From an uncultured virus (IMG/VR IMGVR_UViG_3300037517_002797) (Duplodnaviria; Heunggongvirae; Uroviricota; Caudoviricetes): a DNA stretch of 23,993 bases. Shown piece after piece: positions 4,689 to 23,790 of the stretch. Where the stretch lies: the IMG/VR virus record IMGVR_UViG_3300037517_002797, one strand, 5' to 3'. The notes beneath the pieces are model-generated. The model was not told the DNA's origin, made no database searches, and worked only from the letters and a program-made list of their open reading frames with translations. Both the position numbers and the translations under genes were made by a program. The first letter of the stretch is position 1, and every line of letters starts with the position of its first letter.

Positions 4689-4943
4689 TCATTTCGCAAG
4701 ACCTGCCTTTTTGGCGATCCGCTTGACCTTGCGACGTTCGTTTGCTGTGAGTCCTCCCCACACTCCTTCTTCGTTATTGCGTAGCGCGTAGTCCAAGCAC
4801 TCCTGCTTTACCGCGCACTTGTCGCAAATCTTCTTCGCTCTGTTGACAACTGTCCGCATGCGATCTTCAAAGAACAAATCGCCATGTCCGATACACGCTG
4901 CCTGTGCTCGCCAAATTCCAATGTCAACTATCCGTACTGTCAT
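4689..4943 (-). CDS. whiB: WhiB family Fe-S transcription factor
   Basis: WRAQAAC...LFF...AKKICDKCAVKQECLDYAL...GVWGGLTANER: four Cys plus GVWGG; GGAGG SD. Confidence 0.95.
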   Translation of the reverse strand: MTVRIVDIGIWRAQAACIGHGDLFFEDRMRTVVNRAKKICDKCAVKQECLDYALRNNEEGVWGGLTANERRKVKRIAKKAGLAK

Positions 4944-5960: not shown

Positions 5961-6087
5961 GATCTCTCCTTGTTGTTGTTGTGAATTACATAATACTTGG
6001 TGGTCTGGCCAATTTTGTGACTAACCACCGCGTCTGGATCTAATATACTTTCCTTAGAAAGTACTCCAGCTTACCCGCAAACCCTTA

Positions 6088-8674: not shown

Positions 8675-8899
8675 TTACATCGGGAACGCTCGCTTGATAT
8701 TCATCTCCGCGTACCACTCGTTCAGGCCCTTTATTTTTTCTTCAACCGCGCTCAGAATTTCCCCGATCTCTTCGCTCGAGAACTCTCCATCACGAACCAG
8801 TTCACGAACCAGCCCACCGTAAACCAGATCAGCTTCGCGATCCGCGCCTTCAATCGTTTCAACGATCTCACACGCCTTATCGTCTAATCTCTCGTCCAT
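8675..8899 (-). CDS. Hypothetical protein; paralog of 12378-12584
   Basis: MDER[LI]DDKA.EI.E..EG.D...VYG.LVRELV..G.F..EEIG.IL..VEEK shared. Confidence 0.85.
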   Translation of the reverse strand: MDERLDDKACEIVETIEGADREADLVYGGLVRELVRDGEFSSEEIGEILSAVEEKIKGLNEWYAEMNIKRAFPM

Positions 8900-8963
8900 C
8901 GTATTCCTTTCGTCGTAGTGATAGGATCATTATACGATCCGGAGTTTTCCCAGCACTGGCAGT

Positions 8964-10033: not shown

Positions 10034-10294
10034 CTAGAGGTCCTCAAGCTCTTTCACGAAGCCGGCGATAACCCATTCTTCGTAATCTTCAACCGCGCGC
10101 TCGGTCGCATTGCCGATGATCCTCGCAAGGCCTTTCGCCGTGTCAACCCGCTTGCGCAGGTAGGCTAGGCGCTCGCCGTCATCTTCGTTCTCGATGCTTT
10201 CAATCCGCTTGAGGATTGATAGCACTTCGCCGCCGATAGCTGTCTCGAGCCAGGTTAGTTGGGTCAGTGTAAGTTCAACGCTGTACTTTTTCAT
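10034..10294 (-). CDS. Leaderless hypothetical protein
   Basis: ORF track; TAGAAT-GACGAC-ATG. Confidence 0.78.
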   Translation of the reverse strand: MKKYSVELTLTQLTWLETAIGGEVLSILKRIESIENEDDGERLAYLRKRVDTAKGLARIIGNATERAVEDYEEWVIAGFVKELEDL

Positions 10295-11428: not shown

Positions 11429-11653
11429 GCTGAGGACGCCACAGCGGAGGTAGCTAACCTCACCGCAAGTTCCCCGTCGGGCGTTGCGAACTTGAACCGT
11501 ATGTAAGAGGAGGGCGGATGTCGTGAGAGGAGGACGGATACCGTGGTCCCGGGAACCGCGTAGAGCCTTATCTTCTGAACAGAGCCTTATCATTCAGTGA
11601 CGTCTCGTTCGCAACCTTGCGGCTGCTATGATGTCCTCAACGTGCTGAGGCAT
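11429..11653 (-). ncRNA. Putative structured ncRNA, family A copy 1 (~225 nt)
   Basis: Own promoter, no SD leader; collinear homology and covarying helices with 14322-14544. Confidence 0.8.
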
Positions 11654-11678
11654 GTACTCATTTTACTTTCCGGAGTTT

Positions 11679-11771
11679 CTACCACTTATGGAAGTTAGTG
11701 GCGGTGCGGAATCCGTGACGGATTCCATACGCACGGGAGCATGCGATGAACATTCTCAGTCTCAGAATCAT
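11679..11771 (-). CDS. Basic peptide, 30 aa (MILRLRMFIACSRAYGIRHGFRTATNFHKW)
   Basis: Manual translation; motif plus SD; GIRxG motif. Confidence 0.68.
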   Translation of the reverse strand: MILRLRMFIACSRAYGIRHGFRTATNFHKW

Positions 11772-11820
11772 TACTGGTCCTTTCGTCGTGGTGATGAGTT
11801 AATTATACTTTCCGGAGTTT

Positions 11821-11940
11821 CTACCACCGGGTCCTTGGAGCCCAGTAGTAGAAGTGGCGGCCCGTTTTGACGCCGGCGCGGATGCCGTTGGTACGTGCCA
11901 CCCCAATCCCAATCTTGATTGCGCGGATGATTGCTTTCAT
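11821..11940 (-). CDS. Basic peptide, 39 aa (MKAIIRAIKIGIGVARTNGIRAGVKTGRHFYYWAPRTRW)
   Basis: Manual translation; motif plus SD; paralog of 11259. Confidence 0.75.
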   Translation of the reverse strand: MKAIIRAIKIGIGVARTNGIRAGVKTGRHFYYWAPRTRW

Positions 11941-12000
11941 TTCGTGTCCCTTCGTCGTGGTGATGAGTACATTTTACTTTCCCGAGATTACGTGCCGCCC

Positions 12001-12159
12001 TTATCGGGCGGCCACGCGGACCTCGAGATCCTGCCGGACTTGGGGAGCCTGCGCCACCCAGAACTTGTTGCAGTTTTCACGTGAACCTGAGAACCTGATC
12101 AACTTGAACTTGCGATCATAAACCTCGTGGGCTCGGGTTGATGGCTTGGTCGTTTTCAT
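12001..12159 (-). CDS. Hypothetical protein, 52 aa; paralog of 6257-6406
   Basis: MKTTKPSTRAHEVYDRKFKLIRFSGSRENCNKFWVAQAPQVRQDLEVRVAAR. Confidence 0.8.
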   Translation of the reverse strand: MKTTKPSTRAHEVYDRKFKLIRFSGSRENCNKFWVAQAPQVRQDLEVRVAAR

Positions 12160-12207
12160 CTTTCGTCCTTTCGTCGTAGGTATGAGATCATTATACTTTC
12201 CTGAGTT

Positions 12208-12324
12208 TTAGTTGGATTGCTCCCACAGGTGAAGATCGGCGTTCTCTGGCGCTGGACAGGGTACGTCGTAATCCATCCAATCTTGATACGTGAATCCGCA
12301 TTTACAGGTTTGATCTGAATCCAT
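12208..12324 (-). CDS. Small Cys/His protein (MDSDQTCKCG...)
   Basis: Start after GAAAGGAC. Confidence 0.68.
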   Translation of the reverse strand: MDSDQTCKCGFTYQDWMDYDVPCPAPENADLHLWEQSN

Positions 12325-12377
12325 ATTCAGTCCTTTCGTCGTTTGAACTTGTGAGATCATTATACTTTCCTGAGTTT

Positions 12378-12584
12378 TTACATCCCCATCTTCTCGTACC
12401 ACTCACTCAGGATCTTGACCTTTTCTTCCACCTCGTTCAAGATCATTCCGATCTCTTCGTTCGTGAATTTTCCTTCTTGAACCAGTTCACGAACTAACTC
12501 GCCGTAAACTTGATTCACGTCAAGATCTGATCCTTCCATGATCTCGCAGATCTCGCTCGCTTTATCGTCTATTCTTTCGTCCAT
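12378..12584 (-). CDS. Hypothetical protein; paralog of 8675-8899
   Basis: ORF track; alignment by eye. Confidence 0.85.
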   Translation of the reverse strand: MDERIDDKASEICEIMEGSDLDVNQVYGELVRELVQEGKFTNEEIGMILNEVEEKVKILSEWYEKMGM

Positions 12585-12633
12585 TATTTTCCCTTCGTCG
12601 TGGTTACGAGATCATTATACGATCCCGAGTTTT

Positions 12634-12699
12634 AGTACTGGGTGGATAACTCAGACGCCGCCCAGTGCGACGAGGTTAGAGCAGTGTTATCCAACTGCG
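12634..12699 (-). ncRNA. Putative small RNA cassette G (~65 nt)
   Basis: Own promoter, no usable ORF; two hairpins plus TGGATAAC/GTTATCCA complementarity. Confidence 0.5.
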
Positions 12700-12722
12700 A
12701 TGATCATTATAAGTTCCCGAGT

Positions 12723-12890
12723 TCAGTCAGCTAGTCGCATGGCCGCTTCCATTGCGTCTTCGTGGTCAGCGCCGCAGTCTACCGCCGCTTCATACTGGGC
12801 CTGCCGCCTAGGCGTTAGGGCCTCAAACTCAAGGCGGGCCTTTCGGACCTTCGGGTTACTTGCCTCTCCAAATGCTGTGATCGTCGTCAT
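12723..12890 (-). CDS. Leaderless hypothetical protein, 55 aa (MTTITAFGEASNPKVRKARLEFE...)
   Basis: Manual translation; TAAAGT-AGTGGC-ATG. Confidence 0.72.
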   Translation of the reverse strand: MTTITAFGEASNPKVRKARLEFEALTPRRQAQYEAAVDCGADHEDAMEAAMRLAD

Positions 12891-12914
12891 GCCACTACTT
12901 TACATTCCTGAGTT

Positions 12915-13094
12915 CAGCGACGGCGCGTGTCAGCCGGCGACCATTCCGGCCGATCACGCGTCTCGCTTGCGTGCTAGCGCGCACGACGAAGAACGCGCTA
13001 GCAACTGCCCGTCAACAGTTCTTGGGCCTATGGCAGGCCGGGCCGCTCGAAAGCGTGCCCGTCATGCCTTTGCGGCCCTATGGCAGGCCGGGAC
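12915..13094. other. Structured intergenic element with direct repeat
   Basis: Several long inverted repeats; cctatggcaggccggg occurs twice. Confidence 0.6.
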
Positions 13095-13226
13095 TTATTC
13101 CCAGTCGCCATCATCATCGTCATACGACGGCTCGGCGTAGTAGTCCGCATAGCGGTCTTCCTGCGCCTTGATGATGCTTGCCTCTTCGTTCCAGTGAGCA
13201 TAGTCACTGATGCTTGGGTTGGTCAT
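13095..13226 (-). CDS. Acidic protein, 43 aa (MTNPSISDYAHWNEEA...DDDDGDWE)
   Basis: Manual translation; motif plus GAAGGGAC SD. Confidence 0.72.
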   Translation of the reverse strand: MTNPSISDYAHWNEEASIIKAQEDRYADYYAEPSYDDDDGDWE

Positions 13227-13293
13227 TGCTTGGTCCCTTCGTTGTTCGTTGATGAGATCATTATAGGATCCTGAGATCCCGTCAGCCGAAGCC

Positions 13294-13527
13294 TTACGAC
13301 TGGGACCCGTAGGCCCAGCCGTAAGTTGCTTTGTAGAAGTCTTCCATCCAGGCCAGTGCGCCCTTCTTGGTGTTCTTCGGGCACCCGTATTCCTGTGCCA
13401 CTCTGATCAATGAGACCCCCCGTACATATTTCATGCCCGTTTTGATCTCGAGGCGTAGCCCGCCGATCAGTAGGCACATTCGGTAGTGCTCGATGCCTTC
13501 CTGCGTGTCAATTGCCATTATTGTCAT
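13294..13527 (-). CDS. Hypothetical protein
   Basis: ORF track; motif plus SD. Confidence 0.78.
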   Translation of the reverse strand: MTIMAIDTQEGIEHYRMCLLIGGLRLEIKTGMKYVRGVSLIRVAQEYGCPKNTKKGALAWMEDFYKATYGWAYGSQS

Positions 13528-13577
13528 TGCTTGTCCTTTCGTCGTAGGTTGATGAGATTATTTTACAATCCTGAGAA

Positions 13578-13823
13578 TTAGCAGACCCAGTTGACCGCAA
13601 TTACTGATGACTTGAAGTCATAGTCATGACTAATTTTAGCCGAGACCATGTTCCAAAAGTCTTCTGCTTGGACTTCAGGTCCATCAACAATTTCAATCTC
13701 GGGACCAAACCAACCCGCAAAAGCTGCAGCTGGCTCGAAGTCAAATCCGACAATTTTTCCGTACTTTACTCGAGCGACAAAGCTTCCAGGAATATCTACT
13801 CGTGTCATTTCATCTTGGTCCAT
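13578..13823 (-). CDS. Hypothetical protein
   Basis: ORF track; motif plus SD. Confidence 0.78.
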   Translation of the reverse strand: MDQDEMTRVDIPGSFVARVKYGKIVGFDFEPAAAFAGWFGPEIEIVDGPEVQAEDFWNMVSAKISHDYDFKSSVIAVNWVC

Positions 13824-13862
13824 TGTTGTCCTTTCGTCGTTGGTGAGTACATTATACGTTCC

Positions 13863-14030
13863 CTAGATCGAGATCCAGAGAACGTAGCCAGAGTCATTGG
13901 TCTTGTTGTGGTGTGCGCATGCTTCCACCATCTCACGAGCGCGCTCGAGCGTGAGGCCAGTTCGGTAGACTTCGCTACCACCCGCATCGCCGATCATGAC
14001 CGTGTATGTCTGTTCCTGTGTGGCTTTCAT
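13863..14030 (-). CDS. Hypothetical protein (MKATQEQTYTV...)
   Basis: Start after GAAGGGAC. Confidence 0.72.
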   Translation of the reverse strand: MKATQEQTYTVMIGDAGGSEVYRTGLTLERAREMVEACAHHNKTNDSGYVLWISI

Positions 14031-14076
14031 GTGATGTCCCTTCGTCGTTGTTGAGCTCATTGTACAGTCCTGAGTT

Positions 14077-14271
14077 TTACACTTCGGCTGGGCGAACCTC
14101 AAGAATCTGTGAGTCCAGTCCCCAAAAGCCACTACCGACTTCTGTGGTCATTACAAAGCCTGGCTGACAGCCGTGGCCGACAATTGCATGCTTTGCTGTT
14201 ATGACACCTATCTTAACTCGTGTGCTTCCAAATGGTGAGTACACGACCGTGTCCCCTACTTTATAGTCCAT
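14077..14271 (-). CDS. Small SH3/Tudor-like beta protein; paralog of 9613-9798
   Basis: ORF track; alignment by eye. Confidence 0.82.
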   Translation of the reverse strand: MDYKVGDTVVYSPFGSTRVKIGVITAKHAIVGHGCQPGFVMTTEVGSGFWGLDSQILEVRPAEV

Positions 14272-14321
14272 GCGTTTTGTCCCTTCGTCGTTGGTGTGAG
14301 ATCATTATATGTTCCTCAGTT

Positions 14322-14544
14322 CGCCGGGAAGCAACATAGCTGGAGGAGCTACCTCCCTACCCTTCGCCCGTCGGCGGCCTTGAACGATACAACGTGTGCG
14401 AGAAGTGGACGGATAACTAAGAGGAGGACGGATGGTCAATCCCGGGATTGATCAGAGCCTTATCGTTATGCAGAGCCTTAACTTGCAGGGACGGGTCGTT
14501 CGCAACCAGGTAGTTGCTATGTTGTTTCCCGGCGTACCGGGTAT
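14322..14544 (-). ncRNA. Putative structured ncRNA, family A copy 2 (~223 nt)
   Basis: Own promoter; 18-bp terminal helix; homologous to 11429-11653. Confidence 0.8.
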
Positions 14545-14570
14545 GCTATCATTCTACATTCCGTAGTTTG

Positions 14571-14642
14571 ATGAGCGCCCTGGAACTTTTACCCTGGGCC
14601 AGGGCCTTCCATAATCGGAAGGTGTGGGTCGTTCCAACCCGC
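14571..14642 (-). ncRNA. Putative small RNA cassette D (~72 nt, three hairpins)
   Basis: Own promoter, no SD; GGGTTG/CGACCC, CCTTCC/GGAAGG, GCCCTGG/CCAGGGC. Confidence 0.55.
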
Positions 14643-14646
14643 GAGA

Positions 14647-14769
14647 CTATTTTACTTTCCTGAGATTCAGGTAGATCATTGTGAGAACCGCAAGGCTCGC
14701 TCCAATTATCATGAAGCTTACGCTATCAATGAACTCTCCTGAGATAACAATGTCTTGAGCTGCTAACAC
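14647..14769 (-). CDS. Small membrane protein, 40 aa
   Basis: GTG after GAAAGGAC; hydrophobic C-terminal half. Confidence 0.65.
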   Translation of the reverse strand: MLAAQDIVISGEFIDSVSFMIIGASLAVLTMIYLNLRKVK

Positions 14770-14816
14770 TTTGTGTCCTTTCGTCGTGATGAGATCATTA
14801 TACATTCCTGAGTTTG

Positions 14817-14957
14817 CTACTCCCAGGTTATCCACCCTTCAGGTGTCACGTAGGTTGGAAGGCCCATCTCCTTCAGGTCTTCCCAAGTGTAGCTGCCGCC
14901 TGACACTTTGTTGATGTGATTCACGTAGCCAATGTTGGCGAGTGCTTCGTCTGTCAT
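14817..14957 (-). CDS. Hypothetical protein, 46 aa (MTDEALANIGYVNHINK...)
   Basis: Manual translation; motif plus SD. Confidence 0.72.
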   Translation of the reverse strand: MTDEALANIGYVNHINKVSGGSYTWEDLKEMGLPTYVTPEGWITWE

Positions 14958-14993
14958 TGCTGTCCTTTCATCGTGGTCGGTTGTACGAGACCA

Positions 14994-15185
14994 TTATAAG
15001 TTCCGGAGTTTGCGCTTCAACTCAGGAGAGACTTCATCTGTGATGAATGTCCCGATCTCGACAACAGTGTCGCTTTCGCCTGCGCGCTCGCGATCCGCAA
15101 GCCAGTCGGTGGCTGCTTGCTTGAGAGCAACCACGAGGCTGTAGTGCTCCGCATTGAACGTGACTTCAACTGTCTGTAGTTTCAT
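14994..15185 (-). CDS. Hypothetical protein
   Basis: ORF track; motif plus SD. Confidence 0.75.
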   Translation of the reverse strand: MKLQTVEVTFNAEHYSLVVALKQAATDWLADRERAGESDTVVEIGTFITDEVSPELKRKLRNL

Positions 15186-15227
15186 GTGTGTCCTTCCGTC
15201 GTGTGTTGAATCATTTTACGTTCCCGA

Positions 15228-15456
15228 GAACAGAGACTTAGCGAGATGGTTCAGACGCCCCTTTCGGGATTGAGCCTTAGGCAGTCCGTGTGGCCACACG
15301 CCACCTCGCATATCTCCGTTCCTCACAGGTGGGAGGACGAGTGTCGGCCTAGTGGTCGCCATGCCACTTTGGTTAGTAAAGCCCCCTGCAGGAGGAATAC
15401 CGCTCACTCATGACCCGTCCGCGCTGTGCGGCTAGGCTTGCCCTCGCCACCTGTGC
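15228..15456 (-). ncRNA. Putative two-domain structured ncRNA B (~230 nt)
   Basis: Own promoter, no SD leader; CACAGGTGG/CCACCTGTG, GCCTAG/CTAGGC, GAACGGAGA/TCTCTGTTC, GCGAGGTGG/CCATCTCGC; G-U pairs work on the minus strand. Confidence 0.72.
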
Positions 15457-15478
15457 GAGATCATTTTACATTCCCGAG

Positions 15479-15763
15479 TTAGTCCCAGATCCCTGGGTGA
15501 CCTTCCTCGCGGATCGGTTCAATGTCGCACTCGGCGAGCAGACTTTCGGCCGTTGCGCCTTCGCCGCCATACCACGTGCAGAACCCGTCATTGTCCCACT
15601 CGTCGAGCCTGACCGTCACGACTGGCCATCCGCCACCCGGGCCTTCAGCCTGGTCAATTCTTACCCATGCCGATGGGCAAAGCTTTCGCAGGGCCTCAAG
15701 GGAATGTGTGAGTGTTGGGTAGTCATCGCTAAATGCGACATCCACTTCGTATGTAAGTTTCAT
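15479..15763 (-). CDS. Hypothetical protein (GPGGGWPVV motif)
   Basis: ORF track; motif plus SD. Confidence 0.78.
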   Translation of the reverse strand: MKLTYEVDVAFSDDYPTLTHSLEALRKLCPSAWVRIDQAEGPGGGWPVVTVRLDEWDNDGFCTWYGGEGATAESLLAECDIEPIREEGHPGIWD

Positions 15764-15807
15764 TTTCTTCCTTCCGTCGTTGTGAGATCATTTTACAATC
15801 CCGAGTA

Positions 15808-15952
15808 AAATTTGGAAGGCCGCTACTCATACTTGCGTGCTTGGCAGGGACCAGCCGGTGTCCGGCCAGTATGCTCTTGTGCTTGATGTGTGCTTTGCTT
15901 AGCAGGGATTACCCTGTACCTTCCTGGTCGGTGTTACCCGACCAATCCTTGT
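15808..15952 (-). ncRNA. Putative structured ncRNA C (~145 nt)
   Basis: Own promoter; TGGTCGG/CCGACCA, GGAAGGT/GCCTTCC, CAGGG/CCCTG, CATACT/AGTATG, GGCCGG/CCGGCT. Confidence 0.65.
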
Positions 15953-15956
15953 GAGA

Positions 15957-16298
15957 CTATTTTACAGTCCCGAGTTCTTGGACTTGCCACGGACCTTCGC
16001 CCTTCGCAATGCTGTCGCGGACCATGAATCCGTATGTCTGGACACGGTTGTCCATTGGCTTGCCAAATTCCTTTTCAGCGCCGTTGCACTTATAGCCAGG
16101 CAGCCAACCATTGACGCACGTCCCGTGCAGTGTTGCTGTTACCCAATACGCATTCTCGAGGTCAGTCTCGTCCCCGCCCAATGTCGTGCAGCGTGCCTTG
16201 TACACGCCGGCTGGTACAAGCACTTCGTAGTACCAAGAGGCAGTCTCGCCTGCCGACTTGTGGTACTTCGTTTCTTCTTTGACAGTGAATGTAAGCAC
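15957..16298 (-). CDS. Hypothetical protein (in-frame leaderless ATG also at 16325)
   Basis: ORF track; GTG after GAAAGGAC. Confidence 0.78.
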   Translation of the reverse strand: MLTFTVKEETKYHKSAGETASWYYEVLVPAGVYKARCTTLGGDETDLENAYWVTATLHGTCVNGWLPGYKCNGAEKEFGKPMDNRVQTYGFMVRDSIAKGEGPWQVQELGTVK

Positions 16299-16348
16299 TT
16301 GATGTCCTTTCGTTGTTTCGTTCATGCCACCATCTTACTTTCCTGAGT

Positions 16349-16531
16349 TTAGTCTTGGTACAGACCTTCCGCAAGAAGTTCAGCATGCTCAACGAGCGCT
16401 GACCAGAAGTCTTCAACTCCCTCTGGATCCTTGCTGTCCTCAATTGGGATTATGAGCCTTGGCATCTCGGCGAGCCAGACGTGTACTGCCATGTCTATGC
16501 GCTCGACGCGGAATGGGGTTCCTGTGATCAC
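16349..16531 (-). CDS. Hypothetical protein
   Basis: ORF track; motif plus SD. Confidence 0.72.
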   Translation of the reverse strand: MITGTPFRVERIDMAVHVWLAEMPRLIIPIEDSKDPEGVEDFWSALVEHAELLAEGLYQD

Positions 16532-16580
16532 TGTTTGTCCTTTCGTGTTGGGTTGATGCTGTTACTTTACATTCCGTAGT

Positions 16581-16751
16581 TTACGGACATGAACGATTTG
16601 CGTCACTTGCGTGCTTGCGTAGTTCAAAGCCGCAGTTGTCGCAGATGTCTGATGGGCCGTACGCGCTCGACGGCAGTCTGTCTCGCAGCCGAGTCCCTGA
16701 CGCTTTCTTCTTTCCGTACCTGTACGCTAGGTATGTAGTTAGTAGTCCCAT
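16581..16751 (-). CDS. Leaderless protein, 56 aa, with CxxC-H-C (MGLLTTYLAYRYGKKKA...)
   Basis: Manual translation; TAGACT-GATGGC-ATG. Confidence 0.72.
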   Translation of the reverse strand: MGLLTTYLAYRYGKKKASGTRLRDRLPSSAYGPSDICDNCGFELRKHASDANRSCP

Positions 16752-16760
16752 GCCATCAGT

Positions 16761-16967
16761 CTACTTTCCCGAGTCTTCTCGTGGGAAGAGTACTCGGATG
16801 ATCTCTGCCGAAGGTGCTTCTGGAATCTCGTTGACACTGAGCACGTCAATTGATGTCGGCTCAAGAGTCTGTTGGATGAAAGACCATGCCCGTTCAGCAA
16901 TTTGGTCCTCCATGCCGCTGTTTTCTTCAGTGACACGGAAGACCATGCGGACTTCGTACTCGGTCAT
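16761..16967 (-). CDS. Hypothetical protein
   Basis: ORF track; ATGA overlap with upstream gene. Confidence 0.72.
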   Translation of the reverse strand: MTEYEVRMVFRVTEENSGMEDQIAERAWSFIQQTLEPTSIDVLSVNEIPEAPSAEIIRVLFPREDSGK

Positions 16968-17356
16968 GCATCTACCAAGAAGCGCTTGACGCTTTCTTGG
17001 AAGAATGACATGCCACCCGTTTCCAAGTTCTTCACGTAGATCGGATACTTTGATCGGCTCGTTGCGATGCCTGCAAATGCGTAGTCAGTCCCGTTGACCG
17101 AGAACTTCTTGCCAAGCAAGCCAGCCGGCAATCCGTATGAACTGTGCAATGTCCTGTATGACTGGGCTTCAATTGTTGACTCGTTGATCCCGTTCTCGCC
17201 GATAGTTACCGGAGTTGCGTCAACGGTGAGCGAGTACGAGATGCCGTACTTGGTCCGTGACTTGGCTCGAGCCATGCCGTGCCGCGCAAAGATTGCATCG
17301 GCCGCAGCGTAGATCTCTTCGCTGATTGCGAGTGCTGTCTTTTTGTCTACTTCCAT
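16964..17356 (-). CDS. Hypothetical phage protein (LGKKF..NG..Y...G....RSKYPI)
   Basis: ORF track; motif plus SD. Confidence 0.82.
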   Translation of the reverse strand: MEVDKKTALAISEEIYAAADAIFARHGMARAKSRTKYGISYSLTVDATPVTIGENGINESTIEAQSYRTLHSSYGLPAGLLGKKFSVNGTDYAFAGIATSRSKYPIYVKNLETGGMSFFQESVKRFLVDA

Positions 17357-17395
17357 GATTGTCCTTTCGTGTTGTGTGAGTACATCTTACATTCC

Positions 17396-17686
17396 TTAGT
17401 TCTCATAGAACACGAAGGCATCCATTGCTTGATTCCATGTCTGGTCAAACTCTTGTTCAGATGATTGCCTAAAGCCGAAGTTGTCATTGTGCTCGGAAGC
17501 ATGAACCAGGACAGCTGCTCGAGCGAGCGCTGTACCGAGCGAGACATACTTTTCTTCCCAAGCATTGGCAACATAGTCGCCCCAAAGAACTTTGAAGCCA
17601 TCTGTCTCGAGCAAGATGAAGACCTCTGTATTGTCTCCGCGGCTCTGGAATAGCACCTTGTCTGTTTCTTTGATTAGTAAGCTCAT
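17396..17686 (-). CDS. Hypothetical protein
   Basis: ORF track; start moved after GAAGGA. Confidence 0.78.
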   Translation of the reverse strand: MSLLIKETDKVLFQSRGDNTEVFILLETDGFKVLWGDYVANAWEEKYVSLGTALARAAVLVHASEHNDNFGFRQSSEQEFDQTWNQAMDAFVFYEN

Positions 17687-17744
17687 AACTTTCCTTCCGT
17701 CGTTGTGGTTGATGTAGTCATTATACATTCCTTAGAAGGACGTC

Positions 17745-17942
17745 CTACTCGCTGTCTAGCGAGTAAGCGTGGACGTAGCCATGACGCTCGTCATGGAGGG
17801 TCTCCATCTTGAAGTCAATCAGGATCCGCAGGAACTGAGCGTACGCATCGCTTGGATTGATGAGTCCTCGGTTGAGTTGATTGGATACTTTGGTAATCGC
17901 TTCGTGAGCGTCACCGAGTGAGTTTGGATTGTGCTTGAACAT
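17745..17942 (-). CDS. Hypothetical protein
   Basis: ORF track; start moved after GAAAGGAC. Confidence 0.75.
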   Translation of the reverse strand: MFKHNPNSLGDAHEAITKVSNQLNRGLINPSDAYAQFLRILIDFKMETLHDERHGYVHAYSLDSE

Positions 17943-17992
17943 TGCTTGTCCTTTCGTCTTGGGTATGTAGTCATTATACATTCCTGAGAATG

Positions 17993-18145
17993 CTAGTCCT
18001 CAATCTCTGAAGCGTCAAACTCAAAGTCGCTGATCTTGATTGCCCTGTCACGGACGAGTTCAGCTGCTACTTCTTCGGCATTCTCTTTACTCGTGGCGTC
18101 AACATCCACGCAAGCGTAGATTGATACTCGGTAGTTGGTTGTCAT
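17993..18145 (-). CDS. DpnD/PcfM-like small protein, 50 aa (MTTNYRVSIYACVDVDATSKENAEEVA...)
   Basis: Manual translation; YxVxI...VxVxAxSxExA pattern. Confidence 0.68.
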   Translation of the reverse strand: MTTNYRVSIYACVDVDATSKENAEEVAAELVRDRAIKISDFEFDASEIED

Positions 18146-18192
18146 TGTTTCTCCATCGTTGTTCATGGTGTAATTGTATAGTCCCGAGAATT

Positions 18193-18244
18193 GGCGCGAG
18201 CACAGCAGGGACGAAAGGGGTTATACCTGCTGCGCTCGAGCGCC
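18193..18244 (-). terminator. Long hairpin after the 18248 ORF
   Basis: ggcgcgagcacagcagg...cctgctgcgctcgagcgcc. Confidence 0.5.
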
Positions 18245-18247
18245 GGG

Positions 18248-18661
18248 CTAGACGGTGACCAACCGTCCAGGCTTAGACTCATCAACGGTGGGGGCACCCT
18301 TGAGAGTCACGTGAATGTCAAACGGCCAGAATACTCGCCCGTCCTCGAGCAGCACGCTTTGCTTGCCTAAAATGAATCCTGGCGAGCAAGGGCACGTGCA
18401 ACCTGCGTATTGAGACCACGAGAACTTCTCGAGGCTAACCTGCGGGAGGTAAGACGCAAACAGCGGCTTGATGATCTTCTTCCACTCGGTGTGTGGCCGG
18501 CGAGTGCGATTCATCATGTCTTCTGCGATGTTGAATGTCTCGTCTGCCCAGACATACATCCGAGGTGCTACTGAGTAGCCACGCTTGTCGTTGTGGTTGT
18601 ATCGGCGTTCTTTGATTACTACCTCTGCTCCTGGGAGCAGGAACTTCGCTTGATTGGTCAT
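18248..18661 (-). CDS. Hypothetical protein with WSQYAGCTCPCSPGF motif
   Basis: ORF track; start moved after GAAAGGAC. Confidence 0.8.
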   Translation of the reverse strand: MTNQAKFLLPGAEVVIKERRYNHNDKRGYSVAPRMYVWADETFNIAEDMMNRTRRPHTEWKKIIKPLFASYLPQVSLEKFSWSQYAGCTCPCSPGFILGKQSVLLEDGRVFWPFDIHVTLKGAPTVDESKPGRLVTV

Positions 18662-18767
18662 TGCTTGTCCTTTCGTATTGGTTGGTGAGTCCATTATATA
18701 TTCCGTAGTTTGTGACTGGCTGTACCGGGGTTCGCTTTCCGGCCAGCCAGCCGCAACTTGGGATGGC

Positions 18768-19097
18768 TTACTTGGCTTGAAGCACCGTGTATGGTGACTC
18801 AACCAATGATGCCATGTACGCCTCGGGGAACGCTGTCTTGAGAAGATCACGATCAATCTTGCTCATGTTGCGATGTGAGACCCGGACACGCTCGACTCCA
18901 TTGATGAAGCCGATGTTGTTGCCCTTGAGTGCTTCACGGATCGCTGTCTCCGCTGCTTGCTTCTTAGCCTCGAGAGCCTTGATGGCTGCCTTGGCTTCGT
19001 TGAACTCAACGATCTTGGCTTCCATTGCTGGATCCAAGTCGGTGATGATCTCGATGATCTCGACTTTAGAAGTCGTGGTCACTGTTGATGTGGTCAT
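18768..19097 (-). CDS. Coiled-coil protein resembling the C-terminal part of YqaJ-type recombinase / Gam-like proteins
   Basis: Coiled coil followed by SKIDRDLLKTAFPEAY; family call tentative. Confidence 0.65.
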   Translation of the reverse strand: MTTSTVTTTSKVEIIEIITDLDPAMEAKIVEFNEAKAAIKALEAKKQAAETAIREALKGNNIGFINGVERVRVSHRNMSKIDRDLLKTAFPEAYMASLVESPYTVLQAK

Positions 19098-19144
19098 TGC
19101 TTGTCCTTTCGGTATGGGTTGATGTGATCATTATACTTTCCTTA

Positions 19145-19223
19145 GAAACGGCCCGGCTACTTTGGCTACAACCGACTTGACACGTGGTCCTCTATGTTGC
19201 GCGGTTTTGCCGGACCGCTTCGT
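19145..19223 (-). ncRNA. Putative small RNA cassette E (~80 nt)
   Basis: Own promoter; 13-bp terminal helix GAAGCGGTCCGGC/GCCGGGCCGTTTC with two G-U; no ORF. Confidence 0.62.
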
Positions 19224-19241
19224 GGAATCAGTATACTTTCC

Positions 19242-19427
19242 TTAGAAAGCTAAAGCTACGTGCTCGACATGAGAGTCGGCTGAATGGTAGACCAGTTTAG
19301 AGTCTATGCCTTCGCAGAGCTCATTGAGCTTGTCAATGAAGTCTTCGAGCAGCATGTCAGCTGCATCGCCATCCTCGGCTTCAAATTGGTCAAATGTCAG
19401 TACTACTGACGCACAGTATTTGTACAT
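19242..19427 (-). CDS. Hypothetical acidic protein
   Basis: ORF track; start moved after GAAAGGAC. Confidence 0.72.
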   Translation of the reverse strand: MYKYCASVVLTFDQFEAEDGDAADMLLEDFIDKLNELCEGIDSKLVYHSADSHVEHVALAF

Positions 19428-19472
19428 CGTTGTCCTTTCGTGTTTGGTTGTTGGAATCAATATACATTCCTT

Positions 19473-19544
19473 AGAATACAGTGGCGCTTAGTCGAGCTCA
19501 GTCTTATCTATGACTCGAGCGTCAGGCTTGCGCCGCTGTATTCT
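19473..19544 (-). ncRNA. Putative small RNA cassette F (~72 nt rod)
   Basis: Own promoter; AGAATACAGCGGCGC/GCGCCACTGTATTCT terminal helix; inner GCTCGAGTC/GACTGAGC. Confidence 0.62.
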
Positions 19545-19569
19545 GAGACCATTATAAGTTCCGGAGAAC

Positions 19570-19848
19570 TTACATACAAGGCATAGCACGCCCTGCGACA
19601 TAGACATAGATCATCCTCTTTCCGAGAATGTCCTTGCCGTAGATCCTGGCGAGCTTGGTTGCTTCTTTCTTGTCTGTCGCTCTGAAGTAACGGACATCCC
19701 AAAGGTCAACGCTCGGGTACGGCGCATCTTCTGGAATGAAGGTTGCTTCAAATAGCTTGGTACCTGGTCGGCCATGCAATGCATGCGAGACTAGGTCAAA
19801 GGCAGCGAGCACTTCTTCGTGTGTAGGCTTTGTCGTTGTTGTTGTCAT
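19570..19848 (-). CDS. Leaderless hypothetical protein
   Basis: ORF track; TAGAAT-AACAGC-ATG. Confidence 0.78.
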   Translation of the reverse strand: MTTTTTKPTHEEVLAAFDLVSHALHGRPGTKLFEATFIPEDAPYPSVDLWDVRYFRATDKKEATKLARIYGKDILGKRMIYVYVAGRAMPCM

Positions 19849-20444: not shown

Positions 20445-20564
20445 TTACGTGTCAGCTGCCCGTCGTTGCGGACCTGCTCCGTCTATGCGAGCCTGACGTG
20501 CCCGTGCTTTGTAGTCTTTAATGTACCTATACAAGTACCGTGCGAGTATGAGCAGCGTGCCGAT
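20445..20564 (-). CDS. 39-codon ORF with ATC start (xGTLLILARYLYRYIKDYKARARQ...)
   Basis: Motif plus GAAAGGAG SD 5 nt before ATC; N-terminus resembles the 16581-16751 product. Confidence 0.45.
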   Translation of the reverse strand: MGTLLILARYLYRYIKDYKARARQARIDGAGPQRRAADT

Positions 20565-20602
20565 AGTCTCTCCTTTCGTTGTATGGTGATATCTTACAAT
20601 CC

Positions 20603-20806
20603 TTAGTTTGACAGCTCCTTGATCGCCGTCTTGATCTTTGCAATGTCAGAGTTTTTTGACGCCATCACGTTGACCGTGAACTTGCGCACGATGCGCTCTG
20701 TGAGCCCAGCCTGCTTGGCAACTTTCTCGATGCCAATCGCAATTACTTTCTCGGCCACTTCTTCCATCGTCATCACGGCGTTATCAATGTTTGGTCTGAA
20801 TGCCAT
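20603..20806 (-). CDS. Putative HTH (XRE-like) protein
   Basis: GIEKVAKQAGLTERIVRKF...DIAKI. Confidence 0.68.
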   Translation of the reverse strand: MAFRPNIDNAVMTMEEVAEKVIAIGIEKVAKQAGLTERIVRKFTVNVMASKNSDIAKIKTAIKELSN

Positions 20807-20911: not shown

Positions 20912-22687
20912 TTAGCCGACGCTCGTTAGAGCTCGAGCGGCCGCTGCACCTATCTCGGTGGCAACCGCTGTCGGCTGACTTGTGTTTGGTAGGAGCACTG
21001 CGCTCGTACCATTGGTAATGCTTCGTGCGTGAAGCCCGTTGTCAATTGACAGCCATAGCACGCCGACACCTGACTTACAACATTCGCTGACCCATCGCTT
21101 CGCAGCTTGAGACTCAGGTCCTGTGTAACAGCCATCGCTAACAACAACGAGAAGACGAGCGCCTGCTCCGTTGAGCAAGTTGAGTCCGCCGTTGAGTGCT
21201 TTGAATGCGCTGTCAAACTTTTCGGTGCCATCGGGCGCCGTGTAGATGTTGACTTCGCTCAGGTGCTGACCGGGCTTCAGTGTTGGGAACACTGCTTCAC
21301 CGTAGTACACCATCGCTGCACGCCCTTGCACTCTGCGCACTGCTTCGCTCATGACCCACGCTGTCACTGCCATCGGCTCCATCGCCTCTGACATTGAACC
21401 GCTGATATCCACCATCACGCCGATGGTGAGTGTCGGGTCATCAACGTGCTTGCGCACTGTGCGCCTCCACGGCTCTGCTTGTGCCATCACGCCCTTAGCT
21501 TTGAGCGCCGCACCTTGCACCATCGCACGAGTGCGAAGTCTGCCGGGAGGAAGTATTGAATGGATCTCAACTTCGTCCCTGTCTCGGTACTTAGCCTTGT
21601 CAAGCATCTGCGCAACCTTCACAGCAGCTGCTCGCTCTTCGCCACTTGGTGGACGTGTCGTTTGCAGTGTGCTGCGTGTGCGAGTCTCTGGCATTGGGCC
21701 AGTGCCCTTGCCGAAGCAATCGTCCGCAAGCTTTTCGTGCTCTTGTTGTTCCTTCGCTTTTGACTGACGAGCCTTGGCTTCTTCCTTCCACTCCTCTGTC
21801 GTCTGCTGATCAACGAGCTGCTCGTAAGAACCAAGCTCAGCAATCTCAACAGCTTCACCAAGCGCATCGAGCAGGTCAGCAAGTTCGCCGGCGGACATTC
21901 CACCTGACTGACTGCCGCCTTCATCTTCTTCCTCTTCGCCTGTGACTTCGTTGAGCAGTGCAACCCACTTGCGAGCGAGCTCGTAAAGTTCGGTAGCATC
22001 AATGTGCTTGTCGTGATTCTGTGCTTCAAGCCAGATGTCACGAAGCTTGCCAAGAGTGTCTTCGCCAAGTTGAGCAATGACGCTTAGCTTGATGCCTTCA
22101 ATGTCTGCTTCTTCAACTGAGCCAGCGTCAACTCGAGCGAGCGTCAGCGCAGCGAGTGCTGCTGCTGCACGTTGGCTGTTCTCTGGTAGTGGCTCGTCCT
22201 CAAGATCAGCGAGAACAATTTGGAGCACGCATGCACGGAGGAACCCTGCATTTTCTGGATAGATCTGAAGTCCCTGTGACTCGATGCGTCCTTCCTCAAG
22301 AAGCACGAGTGCTTTGAACTCTGCTGGAGTCAGCGTGCGCTGTGCTGCTTCAATGTCCCACAATGAGTAGCGAGCATGAAGCGCTTCGTGAAAGATGGCG
22401 CCAGTTGCCTTCGGCCATTCAAACTGCTGCGAGCGCTGACGGAGGTCGCCGATATCGGAAGGATTGACGCCCTTGCCGAAAGCAACATCCACATTGACTT
22501 CAACCTCGGCTGTCGCCGGCGTGAAGCATGCTGGTGCGATACCGCCGGCACCTGGGCCGACATATCCAACCAAGTCACCTCGGCCTGCCCAGATGTTAGC
22601 CAACTGGCCAACCTGCGAGCCAACCATCAACCACTTAGGGTCAGTGGCCTCGGCGCGTGTCTTGCGCCTGTAATCAATATGTCCCAT
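20912..22687 (-). CDS. VWA domain protein with N-terminal HExxH region (CobT-like MoxR partner)
   Basis: IFHEALH...LEEGRIE; acidic linker; MIDAS DISGSMS, T, VVSDG. Confidence 0.88.
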   Translation of the reverse strand: MGHIDYRRKTRAEATDPKWLMVGSQVGQLANIWAGRGDLVGYVGPGAGGIAPACFTPATAEVEVNVDVAFGKGVNPSDIGDLRQRSQQFEWPKATGAIFHEALHARYSLWDIEAAQRTLTPAEFKALVLLEEGRIESQGLQIYPENAGFLRACVLQIVLADLEDEPLPENSQRAAAALAALTLARVDAGSVEEADIEGIKLSVIAQLGEDTLGKLRDIWLEAQNHDKHIDATELYELARKWVALLNEVTGEEEEDEGGSQSGGMSAGELADLLDALGEAVEIAELGSYEQLVDQQTTEEWKEEAKARQSKAKEQQEHEKLADDCFGKGTGPMPETRTRSTLQTTRPPSGEERAAAVKVAQMLDKAKYRDRDEVEIHSILPPGRLRTRAMVQGAALKAKGVMAQAEPWRRTVRKHVDDPTLTIGVMVDISGSMSEAMEPMAVTAWVMSEAVRRVQGRAAMVYYGEAVFPTLKPGQHLSEVNIYTAPDGTEKFDSAFKALNGGLNLLNGAGARLLVVVSDGCYTGPESQAAKRWVSECCKSGVGVLWLSIDNGLHARSITNGTSAVLLPNTSQPTAVATEIGAAAARALTSVG

Positions 22688-22794
22688 GTTCTTGTCCTTT
22701 GTTTGTCCTTTTGCGTAGGTTCATAATACATTCCTTAGAATCCAGGAGGGGCTGGCCCACCTACTAGGCCAGCCTCCCCGGAACCAACCAAGAC

Positions 22795-23790
22795 CTAGAT
22801 CTTGGCTGGTCGGCATTCCTCGCCGAAGACCCTGGTAAAGACATCGGCGACAACCGGCCTGTCAATCTCGGGTGCGGCTGCGAGCAAGTTCGCAATTGCA
22901 AACTTCGTGCCGAAAGCTACGGCGAGATCACGGAAGGCTAAGAGCTCACGCATCTGCGGGGCCCACGATACTTCCGATGATTGCTGCTTCTTGTCTAGGT
23001 TCTGTGCTGCTGTCACGATTGGCGTTGGTGCGCCAAGCTTACGAGCAAGACCCCAGTCAGTAGTCATCTCTGCCTGCACTGTAAAGCGTGACAGCAACGC
23101 TTCCGAAAGTCGCACGCCTGGCGCATTCGGGTTGGTTGCTGCAATCACGAAGAAGCCAGGCTTAGCTTTGACAGTGCCTCGCTCGGGATTCGCTGTGACA
23201 GTGTACTCTTTACGGCCATCCATAAGACCATAGATGATGCTGAGCACCTTCGGGTCAATGAGGCCGACTTCGTCAATAAGAAGTGTGCCGCCTGCTTCAG
23301 CTGCTTTGAGCAGCGGGCCATCTTCCCAGAGGAAGCCGCCGCTTGGCGTTTGCACGTATCCGCCGACCAAGTCAGAGACTTCAGTGTCGCCAGAGCCGAG
23401 GACAGTCTGAAGACCGCCGGGCTCGCTGCAGAATGCAGCTTCAACGAGAGCAGTCTTGCCGCAACCTGGTGCGCCATAAAGCAGAATGTAACTGCTCATG
23501 TCACGGGCCTTGCGGAGGACCATCACGTCATCGTGTTCGCCCCACTTGCGAGTGTAGTAGTCCTCGCCATTAGGGCGTGGGAACTTGTCTGTCGCAACGA
23601 GTGCATCTGCTGTAGTCATGGTAGGCTTCTTCTTTGGAGCTGCTGCGCCGCGTGCTGTCGCACGGCCGGCCTGGGTTGTCATCTTATCCAGCACGGAGGC
23701 TGCCTCAGTATTGATTGGCTGAACAGCTACGCTGGTAAGCACTGACGATAGCCCAGAGTGTAGGCCATCGTAGATGGTATTCATTGTCAT
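22795..23790 (-). CDS. MoxR/CobS/CbbQ-like AAA+ ATPase
   Basis: Walker A GAPGCGKT, WEDGPL, Walker B LLIDE, AATNP, LSEALLSRF. Confidence 0.92.
   Translation of the reverse strand: MTMNTIYDGLHSGLSSVLTSVAVQPINTEAASVLDKMTTQAGRATARGAAAPKKKPTMTTADALVATDKFPRPNGEDYYTRKWGEHDDVMVLRKARDMSSYILLYGAPGCGKTALVEAAFCSEPGGLQTVLGSGDTEVSDLVGGYVQTPSGGFLWEDGPLLKAAEAGGTLLIDEVGLIDPKVLSIIYGLMDGRKEYTVTANPERGTVKAKPGFFVIAATNPNAPGVRLSEALLSRFTVQAEMTTDWGLARKLGAPTPIVTAAQNLDKKQQSSEVSWAPQMRELLAFRDLAVAFGTKFAIANLLAAAPEIDRPVVADVFTRVFGEECRPAKI

Follow-up and report, generated by a model that had tools for sequence, protein, structure and literature searches.

What does a promoter drive when no gene follows it before the next promoter? 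This question is raised by a 23,993-nucleotide (nt) stretch of DNA from an uncultured virus (IMG/VR record IMGVR_UViG_3300037517_002797), which we refer to as the window and which corresponds to the reverse strand of bases 22483-46475 in a virus record of 48,261 bases. Nearly all its genes lie on the minus strand of the window, and nearly every small open reading frame (ORF) is headed by one copy of a repeated promoter, with a spacing of roughly 250 nt. The initial annotation, made from the letters of the DNA, had noticed eight promoter copies that are followed by base-paired sequence (11429..19544), and had proposed that they drive a diverse set of small RNAs, deployed alongside small proteins as interchangeable early effectors. 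We conclude that the eight segments are probably stand-alone RNA genes that share the promoter-bounded format of the small protein genes, and that at least five of the eight are likely to be real structured RNA genes.

A repeat search of the window yielded a promoter family of 47 copies, and a weight matrix derived from 57 seed copies was scored over both strands of the 48-kb record. Above 12 bits the matrix found 71 sites on the gene strand versus 2 on the other strand, and above 20 bits 60 versus 1. Read on the minus strand, the unit consists of a ACTCAGGAA-like word, a TAnAAT box, 6 nt and then CA; the CA is usually followed by a ACGAAAGGAC leader, and the ATG is located 40-51 nt past the CT of the ACTCAGGAA-like word. 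The promoter is compact, having a -10 box without a -35 element, and a generic sigma-70 scan detected no excess of sites (5 versus 6.0 in shuffles). At least 10 cassettes of the window have their ATG precisely at the A of the CA, 7 nt past the -10 box and without a Shine-Dalgarno (SD) sequence, as in the minus-strand cassettes 19570-19848, 15957-16325, 12723-12890 and 10034-10294; one array therefore mixes leadered and leaderless cassettes. Leaderless messages of such geometry are usual in actinobacteria. Because the ATG of the leaderless cassettes sits on the A of the CA, the predicted transcription start (+1) can be fixed at this position. Most stop codons adjoin the next promoter, and a terminator scan, which sees U-tract terminators only, gave one site on the gene strand, within a coding region, and none after any cassette.

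For ten of the 71 promoter copies no ORF, whether SD-led or leaderless, intervenes before the next copy. The initial annotation had singled out eight of the ten and was thus right about the lack of an SD leader or a credible ORF; of the other two, one lies outside the window and one, at 20606, has an SD sequence and no canonical start codon. The eight cassettes, numbered 1 to 8 by coordinate, have promoters that score 26-34 bits, as high as those of protein cassettes, and the same promoter heads both kinds of cassette, in line with the proposal that RNAs are deployed alongside proteins. No SD-led ORF at all was found for seven promoter copies, among them those of cassettes 1, 3, 4, 5 and 6, and in the case of cassettes 2, 7 and 8 the sole SD-led ORF found lies past the next promoter. 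The positions initially assigned to the cassettes mark real sites, but they are low ends, since the motif and the cassettes are read on the minus strand: the predicted RNAs start at 11653, 12699, 14544, 14642, 15456, 15952, 19223 and 19544 and run leftwards. The description of paired sequence stretching from near +1 to the next promoter was also borne out. Measured from the predicted +1, the terminal helix begins within 1-2 nt in cassettes 4 and 8, within about 4-7 nt in cassettes 2 and 7, and after about 15 nt in cassettes 1 and 3, and each terminal helix ends just ahead of the next promoter, the 3' arm of cassette 8 extending into it. An Rfam 15 search over the whole window gave nothing at gathering thresholds, and relaxing the E-value limit to 5 or 10 added only chance matches to small nucleolar RNAs, microRNAs and small RNAs, none of them on the own strand of a cassette RNA. 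ARAGORN detected no transfer RNA or transfer-messenger RNA genes in the window.

Cassette 1 (promoter 11654..11680, score 27.2, predicted +1 at 11653; RNA 11432..11653, 222 nt) and cassette 3 (promoter 14545..14571, score 28.2; RNA 14327..14544, 218 nt), like all eight cassettes located on the minus strand, are about 71% alike (blastn), possess common blocks and show compensatory differences in their closing helices. Judged by their sequences, they are paralogs of one family of ~220 nt, which we named RNA-A. Homologs were sought by scanning for a 9-nt motif present twice with a spacer, which gave 59 loci in viral contigs and 72 loci in metagenomes; nhmmer parted the true homologs from chance matches, which matched in the motif region only and, among those printed, were largely coding repeats. 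In total, 34 full-length distinct homologs were obtained from viral and metagenome contigs. Below, the phage under study is designated G000 and the records of its relatives G001, G002, G003, G004, G006 and G011, those of G002, G003 and G004 representing one shared relative lineage.

For eight RNA-A sequences RNAalifold predicted 60 pairs, 33 of which have compensatory changes. The covariance model R1 identified exactly two copies in the window, cassette 1 with 245 bits (89% identity to the G001 copy) and cassette 3 with 184 bits, versus 15 bits on the opposite strand, and it matched neither cassette 5 nor the rest of the window. In an alignment of 36 distinct sequences fitted to the R1 model, 92.4% of the cells pair, versus 66.5% in shuffles and 42-47% when the partners are slid; both-sided changes occur in 47 of the 60 pairs, and the covariation score is 0.569 versus 0.156, a value attained by none of 500 shuffles. 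At each position of helices 1, 2, 3, 10 and 11, three to six types of pair occur. There are 181 G-U pairs versus 31 A-C pairs, an excess consistent with reading of the RNA from the promoter strand. The longest ORF of the RNA-A sequences varies from 3 to 60 amino acids (aa) with start columns that vary as well, and no ORF is conserved; cassette 1 contains a 60-aa ORF that has no SD sequence and is absent from the homologs. The initial view that the segments are non-coding is therefore supported by the ORF search and by the lack of a conserved ORF in RNA-A.

The predicted RNA-A fold is a rod of helices, P1-P2-P3, with two side hairpins, and we define the family by a five-helix rod, these side hairpins, two GAUAAGGCUCU motifs and two CCGYCCUC motifs. 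P3 contains two nested copies of an invariant internal-loop module, in which GAUAAGGCUCU stands opposite CCGYCCUC; between the two modules lies a covarying helix, and both are capped by a variable hairpin. As readings of the modules we considered, without adopting any, a K-turn, an anti-Shine-Dalgarno mimic, a sarcin-ricin complement and a Rho-loading site. As in the window, RNA-A is associated with promoters elsewhere: a TAnnnT box ends 3-25 nt upstream of 25 of the 36 copies, versus 125 of 720 random positions, and 22 of the 36 copies are flanked on both sides by a common word of at least 8 nt that is the promoter repeat of that lineage. The genes downstream of RNA-A vary by context and are usually located behind a second promoter, and this variety argues against a gene-specific, riboswitch-like leader. 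Complements of both RNA-A motifs occur on the messages of the window only as the antisense of RNA-A itself. With respect to its distribution, RNA-A is present in two copies in G000 and G011, in one copy in G001/G006, and in none in G003, a record that is 87% complete. R1 detected no RNA-A in the Actinomycetia phage DSL-LC01 or in the cultured actinophages Pumpernickel, GodonK and GMA2, and a double-motif scan that took a single reference genome for each prokaryote species (185,579 species according to the description of the tool) found no RNA-A copy. Eighteen reference-genome loci were rejected as RNA-A, nhmmer having matched the motif only (at most 51 of ~225 model positions); by eye, about half of these loci are tandem coding repeats of coiled-coil-like appearance. 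At the 5' ends of the two paralogs (11639-11653 and 14531-14544, minus strand) a small hairpin can arise by pairing of the initial ~14 nt to the 5' strand of the outer closing helix, and in both paralogs this hairpin and the outer closing helix are mutually exclusive. The 3' strand of several homologs can pair instead with the CTGAGG word of the next promoter. These alternative end pairings may constitute a folding switch.

Cassette 4 (promoter 14643..14669, score 31.7; RNA 14571..14642) contains a second family, RNA-B, which has a length of ~70 nt, three hairpins and a possible pseudoknot, and which combines a near-invariant core with compensatory pairs. The core (14577-14641) is identical at 65 of 65 positions in G002, G003 and G004, versus 69-85% identity for the other matched stretches of the region. 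Four distinct RNA-B variants provide 19 pairs, of which 4 are compensatory and none is broken. Complementarity between the first hairpin's loop and an invariant word close to the 3' end points to a possible pseudoknot or alternative pairing. Among the 36 RNA-A contexts, 5 have RNA-B as the immediate upstream neighbour, and in G001 and G003 RNA-B is found without RNA-A.

Three further cassettes can be compared with G001. Cassette 2 (promoter 12700..12726, score 26.4; RNA 12634..12699), a 66-nt RNA with two hairpins, has 14 pairs, 2 of them compensatory and none broken, its body being 87% and its promoter 71% identical. Cassette 6 (promoter 15953..15979, score 30.0; RNA 15810..15952), a multi-helix RNA of 143 nt, has 39 pairs, with 3 compensatory changes, 1 one-sided and none broken (body 86%, promoter 59%). 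Cassette 7 (promoter 19224..19250, score 27.2; RNA 19150..19223), a 74-nt RNA with a closed terminal helix, has 21 pairs, of which none is compensatory, 1 is changed on one side and none is broken (body 96%, promoter 71%). In all five cassettes common to G000 and G001 the body is 86-96% identical, versus 59-82% for its own promoter. Scans of viral contigs for exact words of cassettes 6, 7 and 2 returned only the same phage and G001-type relatives. Thus, going by compensatory changes, five of the eight cassettes (1, 2, 3, 4 and 6) are conserved RNA structures.

The remaining two cassettes are orphans. Cassette 5 (promoter 15457..15483, score 33.7; segment 15233..15456, 224 nt) contains a doubtful 31-aa ORF, whose GGAG is just 2 nt from the ATG. 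In the part of cassette 5 covered by a contig of a relative with 90-95% identity, 11 substitutions and 3 insertions are listed in ~45 nt; with respect to the predicted fold, 9 of the 11 affect unpaired positions and 2 break pairs, the list being incomplete and the comparison complicated by the indels. Cassette 8 (promoter 19545..19571, score 29.9; RNA 19479..19544) is a long imperfect hairpin of 66 nt, a near-palindrome that folds on both strands.

Fold energies were compared with 200 dinucleotide shuffles per cassette. The z-scores, with the number of shuffles that fold as well in brackets, are -2.6 (4) for cassette 1, -0.6 (53) for cassette 2, -1.5 (12) for cassette 3, -1.5 (15) for cassette 4, -1.9 (4) for cassette 5, -3.9 (0) for cassette 6, -1.9 (6) for cassette 7 and -4.1 (0) for cassette 8, the latter reaching -5.8 on the plus strand. 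As controls we used 32 coding segments of the same strand, 20 of 70 nt and 12 of 220 nt, with a standard deviation of 1.11 in each group. The mean z-score is -2.25 for the cassettes versus -0.54 for the coding controls (Mann-Whitney p = 0.0012); the most negative control has a value of -2.86, and individually only cassettes 6 and 8 go below it. Hence, the cassettes are more structured than the controls as a set, and singly only cassettes 6 and 8 stand out; by the expectation that the segments fold better than dinucleotide shuffles, cassettes 2, 3 and 4 would fail. As the latter are near shuffles in energy, their case is built on the comparison with relatives.

The RNA cassettes are also mobile. 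Along the direction of transcription their order is 8-7-6-5-4-3-2-1 in the phage under study and 4-6-7-1-2 in G001. The metatranscriptome run X1 contained 16% of the sampled words, and its contigs, belonging to relatives with 90-97% identity, extend over 29 of the 30 bins of the region; they were used for joints only. In these contigs one joint connects 19131 to 19232, which removes the whole of cassette 7, and a second connects 14652 to 14801, both joints being located at promoter copies. In addition, G003 contains two further ORF-less cassettes behind the same promoter (L060:19537-19740 and L060:21785-21930), which are unrelated to the eight; by eye, one of them is closed by a perfect terminal helix of 12 bp that starts at +1. 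Judging from these rearrangements, whole cassettes are shuffled, gained and lost among relatives. The cassettes can accordingly be called interchangeable, as initially proposed: comparison of relatives shows them present, absent or reordered, the copy number of RNA-A varies from 0 to 2, and cassette 7 is bridged by a promoter-to-promoter joint. The proposed diversity of the array stands in that most of its RNAs are unrelated, and is slightly reduced by the paralogy of cassettes 1 and 3. Protein cassettes too have paralogs inside the array, as follows from a duplication of 247 nt with 75% identity (8702-8948 and 12387-12633) that spans two small protein cassettes (74 and 68 aa).

Three other places in the array deserve description. 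The segment 20397-20606 (minus strand), headed by the ORF-less promoter copy at 20606, has a good SD sequence (AAAGGAGAG), no ATG, GTG or TTG at the usual distance, and an open frame of ~44 codons from an ATC; it may use a non-canonical start or be a further non-coding cassette. The GC-rich, ORF-less segment 12917-13094 (minus strand, ~175 nt) lies, without a promoter of its own, between the stop codon that ends a 43-aa gene and the promoter that comes next. It contains two copies of a word of ~19 nt and several hairpins, short parts of it match G002 and G004 (75%) and G011 (85%), and it is a candidate for a ninth structured RNA, one that occupies a 3' untranslated position. The promoter copy at 5970-6057 (minus strand) is followed by a hairpin-containing leader of ~60 nt and by a hydrophobic 33-aa ORF that overlaps with a GTG-started ORF of ~73 aa; it is a protein cassette with a structured 5' untranslated region and not an RNA cassette.

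Regarding the origin of the DNA, the large terminase (TerL) shares 89% identity with its counterpart in Actinomycetia phage DSL-LC01, whose metagenome-assembled genome measures 129 kb, 61% with the terminases of Microbacterium phages and 48-49% with those of Gordonia phages. The gene order is as in DSL-LC01: ribonucleotide reductase, endolysin, AAA ATPase, a 591-aa protein, many small ORFs, HslV, WhiB and terminase. From the terminase and the gene order we conclude that the record is a fragment of an actinobacterial phage of ~120-130 kb; the similarity of TerL would place the host no closer than Actinomycetia. A blastn search of 5 kb against a phage collection gave no match. A WhiB-family protein (4689-4943, minus strand; Pfam E = 6.7e-18) is encoded by this phage, whose promoters have a conserved word immediately upstream of the -10 box and no -35 element. 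WhiB-type factors bind sigma region 4, and a link of this protein to promoter recognition is conceivable. An AAA_5 (MoxR-like) ATPase lies beside the 591-aa protein, which has a weak VWA/CoxE match (20912-23790, minus strand); the DSL-LC01 counterpart of the latter is annotated as 'cobalamin biosynthesis protein' and looks over-annotated.

How might the RNAs work? The host polymerase probably transcribes each cassette from its -10-only promoter, starting at or near the CA, and the 5' end of the RNA would be locked in a helix with the 3' end just before the next promoter. Such locked ends could generate a compact, nuclease-resistant particle, or one that can be excised from a longer transcript. 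The invariant modules of RNA-A may serve as docking surfaces, because the helices have turned over fully while the modules never change, and the RNAs would bind or titrate a conserved host component in trans, during takeover or counter-defence. We thus infer a transcription start at the CA, discrete and stable RNAs, early expression and action in trans. Free RNAs that bind a host factor are favoured because the modules persist while every helix has turned over, because the RNAs are accessory and move like ORFan proteins, and because no neighbouring gene, reverse transcriptase or complementary phage target accompanies them. Nevertheless, we put forward the role of trans-acting binder or decoy tentatively, as a possibility that falls short of being probable. 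A broader and more doubtful view would be that actinophages of lakes and the sea exchange a toolbox of structured RNAs in the form of mobile promoter cassettes, on a level with their small ORFan proteins. RNA-A, with its duplicated invariant module, and RNA-B would then represent a new trans-acting class for takeover or counter-defence, docking on a conserved actinobacterial machine, for example the ribosome, RNA polymerase, Rho or an RNase, or on a defence protein.

The main alternative, which we consider unlikely, is that the segments are cis-acting parts of transcripts, such as terminator or insulator stem-loops, RNase III sites or antitermination elements, and do not give rise to free RNAs. 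The put RNAs of phage HK022, for instance, are promoter-proximal antitermination elements that modify the polymerase that reads them. The position of the segments between promoters in a dense co-directional array without intrinsic terminators, where read-through is expected, is compatible with this view, and so are the simple long hairpin of cassette 8, which folds equally well on either strand, and the hairpins that follow the stop codon and precede the next promoter in two protein cassettes (18191-18247 and 18712-18767, minus strand). Likewise, the 3' arms of several RNA-A copies can pair with the upstream word of the next promoter, RNA-A is directly followed by an SD sequence and a gene in homolog L102, and the promoter-early stem-loop (PeSL) units of T4-type phages pair a promoter with a terminator stem-loop (PMC2839356). 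However, a terminator or processing site needs no invariant modules of 11 nt and 8 nt across 36 diverged sequences, nor a 65-nt core that is identical where the other matched stretches of the relatives are 69-85% identical. Moreover, RNA-A folds over 220 nt into several helices with side hairpins, the helices are not followed by a U-tract, and with a promoter every ~250 nt antitermination is unneeded for the neighbouring genes.

It is also conceivable, and still less likely, that some cassettes, chiefly 5 and 8, are empty or in decay, after recombination between promoters took away the ORF and left a functionless leader or 3' hairpin. Gain and loss from promoter to promoter are indeed seen (the joints 19131 to 19232 and 14652 to 14801, and the shuffled order), cassettes 5 and 8 are without homologs in the relatives searched, and the part of cassette 5 covered by the contig of a relative carries the substitutions and insertions mentioned above, so that these two cassettes may be remnants or plain hairpins. 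Decay is impossible for cassettes 1, 2, 3, 4 and 6, given their compensatory changes, it fits poorly with the 96% identity of the body of cassette 7 next to 71% for its promoter, and cassette 8 itself folds far better than its shuffles. Finally, we regard it as very improbable that the segments encode tiny or unconventionally started peptides or act as DNA, in the form of protein-binding sites or an origin. The GGAG preceding the 31-aa ORF of cassette 5 and the neighbouring cassette 20540-20606, with its good SD sequence and no canonical start, which indicates that odd starts may occur, would be in keeping with peptides, and the near-palindrome of cassette 8 with a role as DNA. RNA-A keeps no ORF, though; SD-led ORFs are lacking in cassettes 1, 3, 4, 5 and 6 and lie past the next promoter for 2, 7 and 8; and the 2-nt spacer in cassette 5 differs from the usual arrangement of this phage, in which the ATG follows AGGA at ~4-9 nt. 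The predominance of G-U over A-C pairs in RNA-A and the asymmetry between its strands (245 versus 15 bits) indicate RNA rather than duplex DNA.

On balance we therefore keep to stand-alone RNA genes, while recognizing several points that weigh against this reading. The absence of an intrinsic terminator after any cassette means that the RNAs could be parts of read-through transcripts. No partner protein, no complementary target in the window and no host sequence was found, and the role in trans is a guess. Taken singly, the fold energies of cassettes 2, 3 and 4 are unremarkable, and cassette 7 offers no informative substitutions. The covariation is based on two sequences each for cassettes 2 and 6 and on four for RNA-B, and fitting the RNA-A alignment to R1 flatters its pairing. 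Cassettes 5 and 8 have no homolog in the records searched, the exact-word scans of viral contigs having been run for cassettes 2, 6 and 7 only. The X1 data are contigs, which provide no starts, ends or strand and may hold DNA.

The early regions of phages are usually read as rows of small proteins of unknown function. In the present array, a folded RNA appears to be the product of roughly every ninth promoter (8 of 71), and RNA and protein cargo travel by the same cassette mechanism. This provides a simple rule for finding such RNAs, namely a promoter copy without an ORF before the next copy, which has already yielded the further examples in G003. RNA-A and RNA-B are two concrete new families, the covariation of RNA-A being unusually clear. 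If the RNAs do bind host factors, RNA-based takeover by phages would extend past mimics of CRISPR repeats and antitoxins.

GOLLD, ROOL and HEARO are examples of large structured RNAs that are associated with phages or prophages and have no known function. Like these, RNA-A and RNA-B are defined by covariation and are located on phage DNA, without a conserved neighbour gene or a known function; they are much smaller, however, match no Rfam 15 model and sit behind their own repeated promoter. The RNA anti-CRISPRs (Racrs), according to their published description (PMC10651486), are small non-coding RNAs of phages that mimic CRISPR repeats as solitary repeat units. The likeness lies in small phage-encoded non-coding RNAs, the use against the host being that of the Racrs; by description they are set apart from RNA-A, a 220-nt multi-helix RNA of a phage whose host is known only as Actinomycetia. 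In the UG27 arrays, phage hairpin units of non-coding RNA template complementary DNA for an adjacent reverse transcriptase (bioRxiv 10.64898/2026.09.22.753630). In both cases phage DNA contains successive non-coding RNA units that are gained and lost; in contrast, no reverse transcriptase is present among the 66 proteins of the window (Pfam) or the 28 larger proteins of the record (PHROGs), and the eight RNAs described here are mutually unrelated, except for cassettes 1 and 3.

The PeSL cassettes of T4-type phages consist of promoter and terminator stem-loop units among small non-essential genes, as described by Arbiol et al. 2010 (PMC2839356). Both systems have many copies of one strong promoter unit between the small genes of a plastic region, and in both recombination between copies shuffles, deletes and replaces the cargo, which in our case is seen by comparing relatives. 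On the other hand, the promoter of the present array is of the actinobacterial type, with a -10 box and no -35 element and often with leaderless messages; its repeated unit has no terminator stem-loop, no U-tract terminators having been found; and part of its cargo consists of conserved structured RNA instead of ORFs. Our literature searches surfaced no account of these RNAs, and the words promoter, non-coding, ncRNA, small RNA and leaderless are absent from the main text of the DSL-LC01 paper (PMC10611076). Thus, phage small RNAs and promoter cassettes are each known separately, and their combination is absent from Rfam 15 and from the literature searched; what is new is the presence of two covarying RNA families and several lineage-restricted RNAs as cargo of an actinophage promoter-cassette array.

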